32,000 nt of DNA from Hyperthermus butylicus DSM 5456 (GCF_000015145.1 NC_008818.1:840001-872000); one strand, 5' to 3'. Shown: positions 138-28,519, numbered from the stretch's first letter. Translations and numbers: made by a program. Notes: generated by a model from the sequence alone, not told the origin.

Positions 138-836
138 CTACTCCCGCTCTGCTTTGGAAGACGTATATGGAGCATGTATTACGCGGTACACCTTTACGGC
201 TCTCTCATAGCCAAGAACCTTCTCAAGCTCAACTATTGATGCTCTGCATATAGCCTCTATACTGCCGAATTTTTCAAGGAGCCTCTCCGCGAGCCTAGGC
301 CCTATGCCGGGCAGGCTCTGGACAACATATAGCTGCTGCATCCACAGCTTCTCGAGCCTCGGCTTCCTATGTATAACCACGGGCCTCTGCTTCAGAGCCT
401 GCTCACGACACGCAACACTATAGATTATTTTTGCTGACTCTTCCGGACCACTGCTCCAGACGATCCTTACACTATAGTCGAGGCTTATCGCCAATAGGGC
501 AAGCTTAACCTGCAATGCACGCGAGGTAACCCTTTCCAGCTCTGCTGGGTCACCCTCAACGAGTATTATTGGGACTTCATAGTGCTCGCTCAGCCTTCTA
601 GCCTGGTCGTAGAGCCTGCCATCGAAAAGGCTTGCTGCAAGGTCGTGCATGGTCTTCCTCTCGAATGCAACCCTATCCGAAACAATGTAATCGCCGACAC
701 CTGCAACAGTGTAGATTACGGCTGCACCCATCTCCCTCAATAAGCGGGGAATGGGGCTAGCCTTCTCCCTCTCGTCAACGTAGACCCGCGGCCTACTACA
801 CTCGGGCAAGAGCTGTACCCCGTTTAGCTGCTGCAC
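138..836 (-). CDS. xpf: XPF/ERCC4-family structure-specific endonuclease, short crenarchaeal form (nuclease domain + HhH2, no helicase domain)
   Basis: ERCC4 signature GDYIVSDRVAFERKTMHDL (GDX..ERK...D). C-terminal helix-hairpin-helix LPGIGPRLAERLLEKFGS. The 232 aa length matches the Sulfolobus-type short XPF. The longest ORF starts at GTG 836, and TTG at 809 is an alternative start. Confidence 0.9.
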   Translation of the reverse strand: MQQLNGVQLLPECSRPRVYVDEREKASPIPRLLREMGAAVIYTVAGVGDYIVSDRVAFERKTMHDLAASLFDGRLYDQARRLSEHYEVPIILVEGDPAELERVTSRALQVKLALLAISLDYSVRIVWSSGPEESAKIIYSVACREQALKQRPVVIHRKPRLEKLWMQQLYVVQSLPGIGPRLAERLLEKFGSIEAICRASIVELEKVLGYERAVKVYRVIHAPYTSSKAERE

Positions 837-870: not shown

Positions 871-959
871 ATGCCCTGGAGGGGCTGTGAGGAATACGCT
901 AGAGGCCGACACGAAACCCCGGGAGAGTCGCGTGAGGATAGTCCGGCGCACCGAGCCCT
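871..959 (+). ncRNA. Box C/D-architecture sRNA with non-canonical boxes (C and C' = GUGAGGA, D' and D = CCGA)
   Basis: GGGGC(881-885)-UGU-GAGGA(889-893)-12 nt-CCGA(906-909)-23 nt-U-GAGGA(934-938)-12 nt-CCGA(951-954)-GCCCU(955-959). GGGGC/GCCCU can form the terminal stem abutting the D box. The 5' end is inferred from TATA spacing. A hairpin plus TTTT at 967-996 follows. Confidence 0.6.
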
Positions 960-1063
960 TCAAGCATTGCTTGGACCTGCTGTGGCAGCAAGTTTTAGGG
1001 GTTCAGCACCGGGTACCCCGGGCCTGGGGTAGGACTTAGACTAGGGCTGCGAGGGGGGATGCC

Positions 1064-3159: not shown

Positions 3160-3223
3160 GTGATGATAGGTGGGCTTACCAGAGCCCGCAAAAGGGGGCC
3201 GTGAAGAGTGTGGCCGTATCTGA
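3160..3223 (+). ncRNA. Box C/D sRNA (canonical C and D boxes)
   Basis: C GUGAUGA 3160-3166. A 12-13 nt spacer. D' CAGA 3180-3183. Hairpin GCCC(3184-87)/GGGC(3196-99). 3-nt bulge CGU. C' GAAGA 3203-3207. 12-nt spacer 3208-3219. D CUGA 3220-3223. It lies in the spacer between two minus-strand genes. No obvious terminal stem. Confidence 0.65.
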
Positions 3224-4892: not shown

Positions 4893-5046
4893 GCCTTTAC
4901 TACACCCTTGGCGCTGGAGGAGGCTCAGCCTAGTATGCGGTCTTCACAGCACAGCTGGGAGCTACGCTCCCGGATTCCACATCACAGCCTCCACCTATGA
5001 GGAAGGATGTGTACGGGTTTATGACTTCAACCTTGCCTATCTAGCT

Positions 5047-12718: not shown

Positions 12719-12790
12719 ATGGGGATGAGGCTCTGGGGGCTCCACGAGCCCCAGGAGGGGCTGTGAAGAATAGTCCCATCACCGACCCAT
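12719..12790 (+). ncRNA. Box C/D-architecture sRNA with non-canonical boxes (C AUGAGGC, D' ACGA, C' GUGAAGA, D CCGA)
   Basis: AUGGG(12719-23)-GAU-GAGGC(12727-31)-12 nt-ACGA(12744-47)-[GCCCC-AGGA-GGGGC 12748-61]-UGU-GAAGA(12765-69)-12 nt-CCGA(12782-85)-CCCAU(12786-90). A 5-bp terminal stem abuts the D box. A 3-nt bulge precedes both GA dinucleotides. Confidence 0.7.
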
Positions 12791-12845: not shown

Positions 12846-12914
12846 GTGATGAGCTGGGTCCTTCCGGTTGCCCGCGGAGGCTGCCAAGCCGATGTCGATG
12901 GTTTCGCGCACTGA
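12846..12914 (+). ncRNA. Weak candidate box C/D sRNA (canonical C and D boxes, no convincing C'/D')
   Basis: GUGAUGA 12846-52 and CUGA 12911-14 lie 58 nt apart. There is no terminal stem and the internal boxes are degenerate. It could instead be the 5' leader of ORF 12940. Confidence 0.3.
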
Positions 12915-25457: not shown

Positions 25458-25946
25458 ATGTTCTGCGGTGGATTCATGACTCGGCCTAGGAGGGAGCGCG
25501 GCAGGGAAACAGGACACCCTGGCGTTGAGGGTACTATAGTGATTCTGGATCTCGACAAATTTGGCGAGGTTGTAGCCGAGAGGGGGTGGAGTGAGTACGA
25601 ACCTAACCCGGCAACGGGGTTGCTGACGAACCTTGTTGAGAGGTTTGCCCGGAAATGGCAGGCTGTCGTTATATATGGGCTCGACGAGGAGAGGGGGACT
25701 GAGGAGGCTGTACTCGAGATACCCTACGTGGAGCCAGAGGAGGTTAGGGAGGACCTAGAGGCTATAAGGAGGGAGGTTAACCGGCTCGGAGTAGGCGTGA
25801 CTATTGTCGCAGTGAAGGGCATTGTTACGGGACAGCCAGCTATGGATAGGAGGGAGGCCTACTATGGCACACCATTTAGGAGGTATGCGAGAAGCCTACT
25901 TGAGAAGCTTAAGCGCCGTGGCGGAAACGCCGTGTTCATCGGCTAG
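25458..25946 (+). CDS. Small GGDEF/nucleotide-cyclase-palm-like protein (resembles the N-terminal domain of archaeal GTP cyclohydrolase III)
   Basis: IVILDLDKFGEVV...EPNP... then YGLDEERGTEEAVL parallels the GCH-III pattern I.IDNYGPWT..PNP and the GGDEF-type beta-hairpin. 156-162 aa (ATG at 25458 or 25476). Confidence 0.35.
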   Translation: MFCGGFMTRPRRERGRETGHPGVEGTIVILDLDKFGEVVAERGWSEYEPNPATGLLTNLVERFARKWQAVVIYGLDEERGTEEAVLEIPYVEPEEVREDLEAIRREVNRLGVGVTIVAVKGIVTGQPAMDRREAYYGTPFRRYARSLLEKLKRRGGNAVFIG

Positions 25947-27082
25947 TAGTCGATAGCTGCTCGTATGCTTGTAGGCTCTGTTGTGGGTAGCACGTTAGCT
26001 TCAAACTCTACCCTTACAGTCTTCTCTTCCCGTCTTCCAGCCACCACGCCTTCGTAAAGTATCCTTCTCAGCTCCTCCTCGATTTCGGCCTCTTCGAGCT
26101 TCATGTAGTGTTTTGCTAGCTCGTATAGCCTCGCAAAGGGCCTACTTGCACCATTGTATCCAAGCCTGTTGTTTGCAACCTCAACAAGCATCCACGCGTT
26201 GAAGAGGGCTCTGGCCTCGAAACTTTCAACAAGCATTTCATGGGTTAAATTGAGATGCTTTGAAGCCTTTTCCAACAATGCATGGTAAATCTTTATTTCT
26301 TCACCCTTCAGCTTGGCTGGACCGAAACGCACCTGCTGCTTGCTAATATGTCTCTCGCCAGCACCTGGAATGATTATCTTACCATAGCCCGCCTTGTGCC
26401 GCCAAGTCTGTGTATCACCGCTATCCACTCCTATCAGTTTAAGCAGGGGGATTACTGCCGCTGATGCGATGCCTAGCGCGTGAAGCTTACCCCTCCAGAG
26501 CTTACGCATCAAAATAAGAAACAAGAGGGCCTTGAGCCTGGAGAATTTGCCGGCCCGCTGCATAAAGTATGGTATTAGCCCTCCCACAGCCGCTATACAC
26601 GCGTTAGACGTGTACTCCACGAGCTGTATGCGAAGTGACTCGCCAATAGCCAGGTGGAAGACCGGTATAAGGCGCCCCTCCTCAACCTTGCCACGAAGCA
26701 TCGACTTTAGAGTCATGAACGTACTAACGGTCTTAGCTATCTTCAACGCTCTAATATCATCACTATCCCGTGGCGATGGAGGGTAGTCGAGGCTCACATA
26801 GTAGTCCGCATCTATTTCACGGTAGATCTTTGCTATCCTGTACGCTCCTGGATCAATACCCTCTCGGAGGAACTGGTAACCACCACTATCAAGCCACAGC
26901 TCAACGTCATCTGTTAACCCTAAAAGCTTACGTAGACCTCGGCCCCTCATGCTGCTCAGCTTCCGGCTCTTGAGGATGCTATACGCGTTAACCATGACAC
27001 CGCGGATTGGAAGTATACGCCACGGGTATATCGTTGTCTCAATCGGCGTTCCCAGGATCAGCTTAAAACCGTTACCAGCCAT
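25943..27082 (-). CDS. tRNA-guanine-transglycosylase-fold protein, DpdA/TgtA5-like, lacking the TGT zinc site and PUA domain
   Basis: LWLDSGGYQFL matches the TGT DSGGFQ motif. Further matches are SLDYPP, AAVGGLIPY, LHALGIAS and GVDSGDTQTW in TGT motif order. The N-terminal FKLILGT...W...VMVNAYSI resembles DpdA-type N-termini. There is only one Cys in 379 aa. Confidence 0.55.
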   Translation of the reverse strand: MAGNGFKLILGTPIETTIYPWRILPIRGVMVNAYSILKSRKLSSMRGRGLRKLLGLTDDVELWLDSGGYQFLREGIDPGAYRIAKIYREIDADYYVSLDYPPSPRDSDDIRALKIAKTVSTFMTLKSMLRGKVEEGRLIPVFHLAIGESLRIQLVEYTSNACIAAVGGLIPYFMQRAGKFSRLKALLFLILMRKLWRGKLHALGIASAAVIPLLKLIGVDSGDTQTWRHKAGYGKIIIPGAGERHISKQQVRFGPAKLKGEEIKIYHALLEKASKHLNLTHEMLVESFEARALFNAWMLVEVANNRLGYNGASRPFARLYELAKHYMKLEEAEIEEELRRILYEGVVAGRREEKTVRVEFEANVLPTTEPTSIRAAIDY

Positions 27083-27180: not shown

Positions 27181-27189
27181 CTATATTAG
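27181..27189 (+). promoter_or_regulatory. TATA box (CTATATTAG) for the sRNA pair at 27210-27373
   Basis: Centred 25-26 nt upstream of AUGGGG at 27210, which is ideal archaeal promoter geometry. Confidence 0.55.
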
Positions 27190-27209: not shown

Positions 27210-27298
27210 ATGGGGTGTGAGGAAGCTCGAAAGGGCTGAAGCCCCCAGGAGCATAACTCCTGGGGGAGCTGTGAAGACCCGCGCAGCACCGACCCCAT
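27210..27298 (+). ncRNA. Box C/D-architecture sRNA with non-canonical boxes (C GUGAGGA, D' CUGA, C' GUGAAGA, D CCGA) and a 10-bp hairpin inserted between D' and C'
   Basis: AUGGGG(27210-15)-UGU-GAGGA(27219-23)-12 nt-CUGA(27236-39)-AG-[CCCCCAGGAG-CAUAA-CUCCUGGGGG 27242-66]-AGC-UGU-GAAGA(27273-77)-11 nt-CCGA(27289-92)-CCCCAU(27293-98). A perfect 6-bp terminal stem abuts the D box. Confidence 0.7.
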
Positions 27299-27308
27299 AA
27301 CCTCCTGA

Positions 27309-27373
27309 CGGCTGTGATGAAGTTACGCACTCGGGGAGCCCACGCTATGACCGAGTCCACCTCGCTGATGCCG
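27309..27373 (+). ncRNA. Box C/D sRNA (canonical C and D boxes with a terminal stem)
   Basis: CGGC(27309-12)-U-GUGAUGA(27314-20)...CUGA(27365-68)-U-GCCG(27370-73). 44 nt lie between the boxes. C'/D' are degenerate. It lies 10 nt downstream of the variant sRNA and overlaps the 3' end of the convergent ORF 27345-27752. Confidence 0.65.
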
Positions 27374-27752
27374 CTTTAGCCGGAGTAATGCTACACATGT
27401 AACTAATCCCGCAGCCCTCTACACGGACTAGCAGCTGGTCTTCAGCTGTCTCCACGGACAGGCTAGGCGTTGAGCAGCCAGGCTTAGCGATGACCGGAAC
27501 TACAGTTCTCCCATACCGCACCTCGATAACTACTATACCTCTTAGCCCAGCCCCAGTGTAAGCCGCATAGGTTTCAAGAAGCAGGTTTCTAGCAGCCCTA
27601 AAGCCAGCTAGAAACCCAACCCATGCATGAGCTATTGCTAGGCAAGATAGCCTAACCATTGTCTCAACAGGCTCGCCGTACGGGTCTATTGAGATTGCCC
27701 AACCCATCTCCACATCTTCAGTGCTAACATTGTAGCGGGCCTCCCTAATCAA
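27345..27752 (-). CDS. Hypothetical protein (135 aa) downstream of the radical-SAM gene
   Basis: ORF starting 14 nt after the radical-SAM stop. TTG start with GGTG upstream. No motif recognised. Confidence 0.5.
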   Translation of the reverse strand: MIREARYNVSTEDVEMGWAISIDPYGEPVETMVRLSCLAIAHAWVGFLAGFRAARNLLLETYAAYTGAGLRGIVVIEVRYGRTVVPVIAKPGCSTPSLSVETAEDQLLVRVEGCGISYMCSITPAKAASARWTRS

Positions 27753-27766
27753 GGCACTACACCGTT

Positions 27767-28519
27767 CTAGGGCTCGTAGTATATCCTGGGTTTTAGGCCG
27801 AGCTTCTCTAGTGCGTGTAGCCTACGCTTAACACTTGGGTATAGAACCATGTACTCAACCTCTAAACCCTCCACGACCTCAGCACCTGCGAACTCTGCAA
27901 TTCTCGAGACAAAGTTTGCCCAACACCGTTCATTCCCGAATGAAGCGAAGACAGCTACGTGGAAGTCTACACCACAATCTGCAAGGTTTTTCACAGCGTA
28001 GAGCTGATAGTTAAAGGCCTCTGGCTTTGCGGCTGTGAGCTTGCTAAATAGCTCCGCACTACAAGCCTTTATGGAGACTCTCACATGGAGATTACGGTAC
28101 TCCGCTAACTGGCATGCCTTCGACCGATCATAGCCTAGTATAATACCATTCGTTTCAAGGACGAAGATTAGGCCGCGCTCCCTCGAGAAGTAGTCTAGCA
28201 GTTCTGTTAGGTGGCTCCATCCTATTGTCGGCTCGCCGCCGGAGAGCCTTACGATTCTATATCCCCTACTCCTAGCGATACCGCGCAGCCTACGGTAGGC
28301 CTCGTGAGCAGTAACCCAGAAACCTATTGTAGGGTCATCTCTAGCTCTTCCGGACCAGCAAAAGACGCAGCGAAGGTTGCAGCCAACCACATCGCCTACT
28401 GCACTGCCGCCGTAGAACCTACTGCCCCTAAACCTAGAGTACTTGCGCTTGCTATTCTCAGCAACTCTCTTCTCTAATTCCAATCCAAGCTTTACCGGGT
28501 CAAACCCCCTAATCCTCAC
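27767..28519 (-). CDS. Small radical-SAM protein (activase/QueE-like size class)
   Basis: CX3CX2C cluster motif GCNLRCVFCW, preceded by RFYGGSAVGD. 250 aa with a GTG start after GAGGAG. Confidence 0.75.
   Translation of the reverse strand: MRIRGFDPVKLGLELEKRVAENSKRKYSRFRGSRFYGGSAVGDVVGCNLRCVFCWSGRARDDPTIGFWVTAHEAYRRLRGIARSRGYRIVRLSGGEPTIGWSHLTELLDYFSRERGLIFVLETNGIILGYDRSKACQLAEYRNLHVRVSIKACSAELFSKLTAAKPEAFNYQLYAVKNLADCGVDFHVAVFASFGNERCWANFVSRIAEFAGAEVVEGLEVEYMVLYPSVKRRLHALEKLGLKPRIYYEP

Follow-up and report, generated by a model that had tools for sequence, protein, structure and literature searches.

A published counterpart of the RNA described here is Sac-sR114 of Sulfolobus acidocaldarius, which reads GAGC-AUGAAGA-GGCUCGAAAGGU-CUGA-AAUU-AUGAUGA-UCCCGCGCAGGU-CGGA (Dennis et al. 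2015, PMC4644070, Additional file 1). It was detected by RNA-seq with 24,853 reads (Dennis et al. 2015, PMC4644070) and accumulates as a 58-nt species (PMC4644070). The authors assigned an rRNA target to neither of its guides (recorded as NP/NP) and noted that many guides of this sort match tRNAs (PMC4644070). The same work lists sRNAs of I. hospitalis and M. kandleri with the box variant GAGGA/CCGA among the ordinary C/D sRNAs (Dennis et al. 2015, PMC4644070).

Concerning the k-turn formed by boxes C and D, position 5 of box C is k-turn position 3b and position 2 of box D is 3n (PMC6009581). A survey of archaeal box C/D RNAs in an older Lowe-lab database reported a 'strong propensity to U:U' at 3b:3n (PMC5689011), and the variability of base pairs 1b1n to 4b4n has been tabulated for Pyrobaculum and Pyrococcus (Lui et al. 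2018, PMC6009581). The k-turn of U4 snRNA has G-C at 3b:3n; k-turns with a Watson-Crick pair at this position do not fold in Mg2+ alone and fold on binding of L7Ae or 15.5K (PMC4382518). In Pyrobaculum, C/D sRNAs are known to target the wobble position (34) of tRNAs (PMC6009581).

The window analyzed here is a stretch of 32,000 nt of Hyperthermus butylicus DNA, in which a previous inspection (the sequence-only reading) had described, at 27210-27298, a double-guide box C/D architecture with unusual boxes. This layout was borne out, as the stem, the boxes, the 12- and 11-nt spacers and the TATA element can all be read from the sequence (Table 1). The plus strand runs AUGGGG-U-GUGAGGA-AGCUCGAAAGGG-CUGA-AG-[CCCCCAGGAG-CAUAA-CUCCUGGGGG]-AGCU-GUGAAGA-CCCGCGCAGCA-CCGA-CCCCAU, which is a full double-guide box C/D layout. 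The features by which an archaeal box C/D sRNA is recognized in sequence were all found: C and D boxes, a terminal stem with the 3-nt bulge, a C'/D' motif, spacers, a guide and orthology. Our main reading, to which we assign a probability of roughly 0.88, is that 27210-27298 is an independently transcribed gene for a double-guide box C/D sRNA of the ordinary kind, a guide of ribose methylation, in which the G-C form of the k-turn is no marker of a class.

Table 1. Coordinates of the features discussed, counted from the first nucleotide of the window.
Feature	Position	Strand	Remarks
TATA-like element TATATTA, putative promoter	27182..27188	+	about 25 nt before the terminal stem begins
Terminal (C) stem, 5' strand, AUGGGG	27210..27215	+	pairs with 27293-27298
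L1, U	27216	+	read from sequence
Box C, GUGAGGA	27217..27223	+	G at position 5 is k-turn 3b
D' guide, AGCUCGAAAGGG	27224..27235	+	12 nt
Box D', CUGA	27236..27239	+	
D'-C' hairpin	27242..27266	+	10 bp; CCCCCAGGAG 27242-27251 / CUCCUGGGGG 27257-27266, loop CAUAA
Box C', GUGAAGA	27271..27277	+	
D guide, CCCGCGCAGCA	27278..27288	+	11 nt
Box D, CCGA	27289..27292	+	C at position 2 is 3n, pairs with G27221
Terminal stem, 3' strand, CCCCAU	27293..27298	+	
Flanking gene	25943-27082	-	no Pfam family
Flanking gene	27767-28519	-	radical SAM
ERCC4 nuclease gene	138-836		
Adjacent canonical box C/D sRNA	27310..27372	+	C GUGAUGA 27314-27320; D CUGA 27365-27368
Second G:C-type box C/D sRNA	880..960	+	stem 880-885 / 955-960; 12-nt guides; TATA 843-848
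Boxes of the second G:C-type sRNA		+	C GUGAGGA 887-893; D' CCGA 906-909; C' GUGAGGA 932-938; D CCGA 951-954
Third G:C-type box C/D sRNA	12719..12790	+	stem 12719-12723 / 12786-12790
Boxes of the third G:C-type sRNA		+	C AUGAGGC 12725-12731; D' ACGA; C' GUGAAGA 12763-12769; D CCGA 12782-12785

Compared to consensus sequences, box C matches a RUGAUGA-like motif at 6 of 7 positions and box D a CUGA-like motif at 3 of 4, a G-C pair replacing the usual U.U at 3b:3n. The D'-C' hairpin is present in the minimum free energy (MFE) fold with z = -4.8, in a procedure that does not model k-turns and by which several of the orthologues fold no better than shuffles. As modelled, this hairpin is predicted to make the inner C'/D' motif a true k-turn and not a k-loop. 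The RNA occupies the intergenic gap between two minus-strand genes. An H/ACA sRNA was rejected: the terminal stem is followed by AACC and not by an ACA box, C/D-type boxes at 12/11-nt spacing bound the conserved single strands, and there is no pocket geometry.

The occurrence of such a layout by chance was controlled in the window. Taken by itself, the short motif GAGGN-N10-13-CCGA shows no enrichment (6 found versus 3.4 expected). The complete architecture, defined as boxes C, D', C' and D, two spacers of 10-13 nt each and no fewer than 4 bp in the terminal stem, was met with three times, versus 0.3 in shuffles (maximum 1 in 40 shuffles), and the three matches all have G:C at C5/D2.

The corresponding loci of relatives were retrieved by search with the neighbouring 379-aa protein, which gave 15 related loci. 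Six of them (L002, L004 and L006-L009), belonging to Pyrodictium, Hyperthermus and Pyrodictiaceae MAGs, carry the sRNA syntenically, upstream of the gene for the 379-aa protein. The ERCC4 nuclease encoded at 138-836 of the window is 100% identical to an H. butylicus protein, and H. butylicus is itself a member of the family Pyrodictiaceae. A/T-rich boxes stand at a similar upstream distance in four of the six orthologues (L002, L004, L006 and L007), and none is evident in L008 and L009. The start with AUG, which had been pointed out for the RNAs of the window, is absent as a conserved feature among these orthologues.

An alignment of eight sequences (the 27210 RNA of the window, the six Pyrodictiaceae orthologues and Sac-sR114) was used to follow conservation and covariation. 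Its most conserved parts are the two spacers, not the flanks. The core GCUCGAAAGG of the D' guide is invariant in the seven Pyrodictiaceae orthologues and Sac-sR114, while the D guide is invariantly CCGCGCAGCA in Pyrodictiaceae and CCCGCGCAGG in Sac-sR114; the spacer lengths of 12 and 11 nt are identical in all the Pyrodictiaceae members. The G-A dinucleotides of boxes C and D are invariant in 8/8 sequences. Within box C, U-G-A and G6 are invariant or nearly so, and position 5 is G in five sequences, A in two and U in one; position 2 of box D' varies among U, G, A and C.

The terminal stem differs in sequence from genome to genome with its complementarity kept (AUGGGG/CCCCAU, GGCG/CGCC, CGGCGG/CCGCU, UGG/CCA), and in the alignment both sides have changed at 5 of the 6 pairs. 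Paired cells amount to 72.7%, versus 31-49% when the partners are slid, and the covariation score of 0.282 was reached by one of 500 shuffles, the slid controls giving 0.04-0.15. The D'-C' hairpin recurs with unrelated sequences in five of the six Pyrodictiaceae orthologues (L002, CCCGGCU/AGCCGGG; L006, GCAAGC/GCUUGC; L008, GCCCUC/GAGGGC; and others), and the segment is merely a short loop in L004 (2 nt) and in Sac-sR114. So, it can be said that covariation from eight sequences lends the structure a support that is consistent throughout, with modest statistics.

Sac-sR114 and the 27210 RNA align box for box and guide for guide, with the same two guides (GGCUCGAAAGGU and CCCGCGCAGG in Sac-sR114), the same box order and the same spacing. 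Judged from this alignment, the 27210 RNA is an orthologue of Sac-sR114, and since both guides are common to the two RNAs the family spans Sulfolobales and Desulfurococcales. The differences lie in the boxes, which are C AUGAAGA / D CGGA (A.G at 3b:3n) and C' AUGAUGA / D' CUGA (U.U) in Sac-sR114, in the D'-C' segment, a 4-nt loop there versus the 10-bp hairpin here, and in the final three nucleotides of the D guide, GGU in Sac-sR114 versus GCA in the 27210 RNA.

The box variant itself is found in I. hospitalis and M. kandleri (IHOsR31, IHOsR203, IHOsR302, MKAsR61 and MKAsR117), at C/D and/or C'/D', and there too G at C5 goes with C at D2; the guides of these sRNAs differ from those of the 27210 RNA and hence they are not its orthologues. 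A GAGGA/CCGA sRNA occurs also in Pyrolobus fumarii (L189). The likeness to U4 snRNA, which the sequence-only reading had proposed for the GA-GG/CC-GA core, is correct as far as the core goes, with a 3-nt bulge, tandem G.A/A.G pairs and then G-C at 3b:3n (PMC4382518). U4 differs in having a loop-capped non-canonical stem, in pairing with U6 and in binding Prp31, whereas the non-canonical side of the 27210 RNA leads on into the two guide spacers, of 12 and 11 nt, and then into another k-turn; no homology is implied. Membership in U4 snRNA, which calls for a non-canonical stem capped by a short loop, U6-pairing regions and an Sm site, was rejected on account of this continuation. No match of the 27210 RNA to U4 or to any Rfam entry was found.

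The sequence-only reading had gone further and seen in the G-C pair, with its k-turn of the U4 snRNA type, the mark of a class of archaeal sRNAs not yet described. Such a class might have its own protein partner or function. The identity of the core with that of U4 favours this view, as does the propensity to U:U reported by the older database survey; in addition, a limited literature check, which took in the texts by Dennis et al. 2015, Lui et al. 2018 and Su et al. 2013, came upon no discussion of the G-C/U.U pairing. The comparison of orthologues argues strongly against it. The geometry in which C5 faces D2 is right (PMC6009581), and the search of relatives for paired changes at C5 and D2, proposed together with the claim, confirmed the coupling, G going with C. 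Nevertheless, one and the same guide RNA may have U.U in one genome and G-C in another, and this was seen in three families.

In the 27210 family, the C/D pair is G-C in the window and in L006-L009, U.U in L004, A.C in L002 and A.G in Sac-sR114; the C'/D' pair is G-C in L004 (GAGGA/CCGA), A with U, G or A in the window, L002 and L006-L009, and U.U in Sac-sR114. The A-U pair read at C'/D' of the H. butylicus RNA is therefore not a conserved trait, its place being taken by A.G, A.A or G-C in orthologues. In the family of the sRNA at 3160-3222, with guides GGUGGGCUUAC and GUGUGGCCGUA(U/G), the pair is G-C in L005 (GUGAGGA/CCGA) and U.U in the window (GUGAUGA/CUGA), L188 and L191. In the family of the 871 sRNA, the C'/D' pair is G-C in H. 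butylicus (GAGGA/CCGA) and U.U in Pyrodictium abyssi (GAUGA/CUGA). Because orthologues switch at the same k-turn in three families, U.U and G-C belong to one kind of RNA. Moreover, single RNAs combine both motifs, as in L010 (12478-12429) and several MKAsR entries.

The distribution of the two forms was also counted in the RNA-seq-derived sequences of Additional file 1 of Dennis et al. 2015. In an automatic, spacing-based parse in which some boxes may be mis-assigned, C5:D2 was G:C in 23 and U:U in 18 of the M. kandleri sRNAs (80 of 90 parsed), G:C in 23 and U:U in 5 of those of I. hospitalis (39 parsed of the first 48 listed), G:C in none and U:U in 23 of those of T. tenax (31 parsed, with six G:C at C'/D'), and G:C in none and U:U in 15 of those of N. 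equitans (25 parsed). G:C is thus the commonest combination in M. kandleri and the majority in I. hospitalis, in lists where these RNAs pass for ordinary C/D sRNAs. The coupling is tight: D2 is C in 23 of the 25 M. kandleri sRNAs with C5 = G, and Fisher's exact test (G or U versus C or U) gave 1e-7 for C/D and 1e-6 for C'/D' in M. kandleri, and 6e-4 and 3e-5, respectively, in I. hospitalis. Other coupled combinations (A:G, A:A and C:C) recur as well.

Taking together the orthology to Sac-sR114, the three families that switch between U.U and G-C and the bulk of such RNAs in the published I. hospitalis and M. kandleri lists, the claim of an undescribed class does not hold, and we consider it very improbable. 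The guides of the 27210 and 12719 RNAs also point to ordinary C/D targets, namely a tRNA and 16S rRNA. On this comparative evidence, the ordinary box C/D k-turn of Desulfurococcales and Methanopyrus has two forms that can replace each other, and the one with G-C at 3b:3n is typical of these lineages.

It is possible, and we put it forward only tentatively, that the change from U.U to G-C is systematic and lineage-specific in Desulfurococcales (Hyperthermus, Pyrodictium, Pyrolobus and Ignicoccus) and Methanopyrus, with strict covariation and repeated switches driven by selection, and that it has perhaps gone unanalyzed in the literature. I. hospitalis is placed here on the assumption that it belongs to the order Desulfurococcales, the same as Hyperthermus. 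If true, the selection could be, for instance, for thermostabilization of the non-canonical stem near 100 °C or for co-adaptation with L7Ae/Nop5. A benefit of the G-C pair for thermostability near 100 °C may exist; phylogeny or co-adaptation with proteins is at least as likely, because U.U is retained in Pyrobaculum and Thermoproteus, whose growth temperature (about 86-95 °C) and GC content (about 55%) are comparable. Temperature or GC content as a simple explanation is thereby made less likely.

A different interpretation would take the 27210 element as a k-turn acting in cis in an mRNA leader, such as an L7Ae-responsive translational operator, or as part of a longer transcript. L7Ae-binding k-turns are known in archaeal 5' untranslated regions (PMC5539422, PMC6298567), and the unfolded state of k-turns with Watson-Crick 3b:3n until protein binds is a switch-like property (PMC4382518). 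Nevertheless, the two k-turns with exact 12- and 11-nt spacers, better conserved than the flanks, argue against it, as does the accumulation of the S. acidocaldarius counterpart as a 58-nt species. The sequence-only reading had itself named membership in an mRNA leader as a finding that would speak against it; no plus-strand ORF follows the RNA, the genes on both sides being on the minus strand. This interpretation is hardly credible.

That the RNA is a repeat or mobile (MITE-like) element resembling a C/D sRNA and duplicated in the genome is scarcely tenable, for although the three G:C sRNAs of H. butylicus share CCCC(A/G)GGAG in their D'-C' spacers and MITE-like look-alikes of sRNAs exist in Pyrobaculum (PMC6009581), synteny and conservation across genera hold for every one of the loci, each of which has invariant guides of its own, CCCC(A/G)GGAG is absent from the orthologues and present in the window at chance frequency (10 found, 9.3 expected), and flanking inverted repeats or target-site duplications were not seen at the loci.

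Returning to the reading of the 27210 RNA as an ordinary methylation guide, its two guides fared differently in the search for complements that had been suggested from the sequence: the D' guide led to tRNA-Glu(UUC), and the D guide, without an rRNA match in seven archaea, led only to a tRNA-Leu candidate. The complement of the D' guide, CCUUUCGAGC(C), corresponds to positions 31-41 of tRNA-Glu(UUC) and reads C31-C32-U33-U34-U35-C36-G37-A38-G39-C40-C41, with anticodon UUC. With tRNA-Glu(UUC) genes from other genomes, the guide forms 10-11 contiguous pairs, the N+5 position being A:U34. By the N+5 rule, the methylation is placed on U34, and it seems reasonable to interpret that the D' guide most likely directs 2'-O-methylation of the wobble U34 of tRNA-Glu(UUC). 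A guide shared by Sulfolobus and the Pyrodictiaceae would thereby receive a probable function. The Pyrobaculum sRNAs sR26, sR27, sR45, sR46 and sR51 (Lui et al. 2018, PMC6009581) are similar in that the guide pairs with the anticodon loop of one tRNA with N+5 at position 34, and differ in concerning other tRNAs and another genus.

No tRNA-Glu gene is present in the window or in the Pyrodictiaceae loci examined. The 5'-most base of the D' guide is A in the window versus G in the relatives, so either U41 or a terminal mismatch is predicted in the tRNA-Glu of H. butylicus. Viral contigs were scanned for CCTTTCGAGC plus a T-loop, an anchor that builds a tRNA into the search, and of the 13 loci retrieved 10 had a tRNA-Glu(ttc) called by ARAGORN at the match. 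The other three (L139, L140 and L145) gave no ARAGORN gene call and end in ...GGCCUUUCGAGCC...GGUUCAAAUCCCGGCCG(C/G)(G/A)GCAC; they are read, from their sequences, as archaeal partial copies of the 3' part of tRNA-Glu, as left at integration sites. L143 (...UGCGGGCCUUUCGAGCCCGUGACCCGGGUUCAAAUCCCGGCCGCGGCAC), called by ARAGORN, nevertheless looks like these partial copies. For the hypothesis that the two guides pair with neighbouring sites of tRNA-Glu, a metagenome scan (CTGCGCGG-N0-8-CCTTTCGAGC) gave at least 120 matches, and those listed were chance matches in bacterial coding DNA, none of them a tRNA. A literature search with the guide and box sequence strings returned nothing relevant.

Concerning the D guide, its complement is UGCUGCGCGG in H. 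butylicus and ACCUGCGCGGGA in the Sulfolobus version. The 16S/23S rows of Dennis 2015 for seven archaea contain no match to it, CUGCGCG(G) occurring only in E. coli 23S. A target in an anticodon loop (C32-U33-G34-C35-G36) was rejected, as position 37 would be C. Scans of viral contigs for the D guide target with the T-loop anchor gave bacterial or phage tRNAs and, in addition, L193, in which the junction GCCUGCGCGGGUUC can form 11 uninterrupted pairs with the guide in its Sac-sR114 version. L193 has no tRNA gene called by ARAGORN and was recognized by eye as a partial archaeal-type tRNA-Leu(GAG)-like copy, the pairing falling at the junction of the variable arm and the T-stem. The D guide probably targets a class II tRNA, the best candidate being the variable-arm/T-stem junction of tRNA-Leu. 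The lineage variation ACC/UGC in the complement of the D guide would fit a covarying variable arm in this candidate.

The way in which such an RNA could work can be outlined. The terminal stem would juxtapose box C (GUGAGGA) and box D (CCGA) in a k-turn with a 3-nt bulge, tandem sheared G.A/A.G pairs, G-C and G-C, and the inner hairpin would likewise join C' (GUGAAGA) and D' (CUGA). L7Ae would bind and fold each k-turn, and Nop5 and fibrillarin would complete the sRNP, in which each guide would direct fibrillarin to one target nucleotide, the partner of the guide base five positions upstream of D' or D. The 12-nt D' guide would pair with the tRNA-Glu(UUC) anticodon stem-loop for a methyl on the wobble U34, and the 11-nt D guide with a second candidate target, most likely a class II tRNA. 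Transcription, protein binding and methylation itself are predictions for the H. butylicus RNA, drawn from sequence comparison. By analogy, the L7Ae-dependent folding of a k-turn with Watson-Crick 3b:3n would suit this protein-dependent assembly. The RNA-seq abundance in Ignicoccus and Methanopyrus shows that GAGGA/CCGA RNAs accumulate. For the biophysics of k-turns they amount to a natural experiment: a Watson-Crick pair at 3b:3n is evidently compatible with C/D sRNA accumulation, and presumably with sRNP assembly, in organisms growing near 100 °C. In practice, search models based on RUGAUGA/CUGA will miss a part of the C/D sRNAs of Desulfurococcales and Methanopyrus, in which GAGGA/CCGA is equally common or commoner.

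The same substitution had been claimed at 871-959 and 12719-12790, and the boxes there read as described, with the correction that 871-879 is a leader and the stem begins at 880. All three G:C RNAs (27210, 871 and 12719) are conserved in relatives, with guides invariant and terminal stems and inner hairpins varying in a compensatory manner. The 871 family, with the same guides, includes Pyrodictium abyssi (L188) and two MAGs (L190 and L191). The 12719 family was found in L209 and L210, two distant contigs whose neighbouring protein is just 39-42% identical; AUGAGGC/CCGA, the D' box ACGA and both guides are invariant in it, and the D'-C' hairpin differs in sequence in each member (GCCCC-AGGA-GGGGC, GCCUA-GA-UAGGC and GCCC-CGUGGA-GGGC). 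Because these hairpin sequences differ, the apparent pairing between D' guide and spacer that the MFE fold gives for H. butylicus is not conserved, and the segment is a true guide. This D' guide, UCUGGGGGCUCC, is complementary at 12 of 12 positions to the 16S sequence GGAGCCCCCAGA given for I. hospitalis and N. equitans in Additional file 1 of Dennis et al. 2015, which makes the 12719 RNA an rRNA guide. [quoted passage not shown]

Canonical sRNAs were said to coexist in the window with these variants, at 3160 and 27309, and GUGAUGA/CUGA boxes were indeed read at 3160-3222 and 27310-27372. The D' guide of the latter, GUUACGCACU, is kept in L002, L004, L006-L009 and L011; its complement occurs in 23S rRNA as GAGUGCGUAAC. 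Rfam, at gathering and permissive thresholds, assigned no family to any of these RNAs. They add unannotated but ordinary methylation-guide RNA genes to H. butylicus, at least seven of which were counted in the 32-kb window.

The G:C-type sRNAs, in which G at C-box position 5 faces C at D-box position 2 of the k-turn, showed a further variation outside the window. GUGUGGA boxes, where U replaces A at 2b, in the second sheared pair, were present in orthologues from both the 871 and the 27210 family, and the box opposite was CCGA every time. Two alternatives might account for these boxes: tolerance of U.G by the k-turn at position 2b:2n, or a displacement of the G-A register by some 3 nt (GGA-GG). 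In L010, a locus from a Pyrodictiaceae MAG, a single-guide version encoded on the opposite strand took the place of the 27210 family; it reads GGGG-U-AUGUGGA-GGCUCGAAAGGG-CCGA-CCCACCC and retained the tRNA-Glu guide alone. Concerning the canonical sRNA 3160-3222, its orthologue in the related locus L005 (782-713, minus strand) carried GUGAGGA/CCGA instead of the boxes found in the window.

Features of the window and of related loci (window positions unless a locus is named)
Feature	Positions	Strand	Remarks
Canonical C/D sRNA	3160-3222	+	GUGAUGA/CUGA; inner hairpin; RsmB-like gene on one side, RNase HII gene on the other
C/D sRNA	4925-4985	-	GUGAUGU...CUGA; 6-bp terminal stem; inner hairpin GGGAGC/GCUCCC
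Canonical C/D sRNA	12846-12914	+	tandem with 12719 sRNA
Canonical C/D sRNA	27310-27372	+	GUGAUGA...CUGA; immediately downstream of 27210 sRNA
ORF, putative gene	27345-27752	-	135 aa; TTG start; without Pfam family
CCCC(A/G)GGAG motif	917-925; 12749-12757; 27243-27251; 27257-27265		D'-C' spacers
GUGUGGA-type box	L188 (Pyrodictium abyssi), about 9900	-	
GUGUGGA-type box	L190, 2073-2021	-	
GUGUGGA-type box	L191, 9903-9838	-	
GUGUGGA-type box	L010, 3207-3253	+	single-guide version

The D'-C' spacers of all three H. butylicus G:C-type sRNAs had the motif CCCC(A/G)GGAG in common, while it was absent from their orthologues in other genera, which hints at a recent duplication or gene conversion among the three genes inside H. 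butylicus.

The D guide of the 12846 sRNA, GGUUUCGCGC, is complementary to GCGCGAAACC of 16S rRNA, in the same region as the D'-guide target of its tandem partner 12719, so the pair, judged by these complementarities, may act on a single 16S stretch. The 12846 sRNA was kept in the related loci L209 and L210. For the D guide of the 12719 sRNA (12770-12781, +), the predicted target is UGAUGGGACUAU, a near match to I. hospitalis 16S AGAUGGGCACUGA, immediately 3' of the D'-guide target, the difference being one extra C; the candidate site in H. butylicus 16S would be GAUGGGACU.

In the 871 sRNA, the predicted 5' leader (AUGCCCUGG; 871-885 region, +) includes GCCCU, which repeats the terminal stem's 3' strand. 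This GCCCU can pair with GGGGC at 881-885, and the alternative hairpin so formed would be in competition with the terminal stem until 5' trimming.

The D' guide GUUACGCACU of the 27310 sRNA, complementary to GAGUGCGUAAC of 23S rRNA (around 1090 in E. coli), was kept in L002, L004, L006-L009 and L011, and is identical to a guide of M. kandleri MKAsR34. The D guide GUGUGGCCGUAU is common to the 3160 sRNA and M. kandleri MKAsR76, and the D guide CCGCAUACUAGG of the 4925 sRNA was kept in P. abyssi and L191. The 135-aa ORF, a putative gene, overlaps the 27310 sRNA by about 28 nt and occupies most of the gap before the radical SAM gene.
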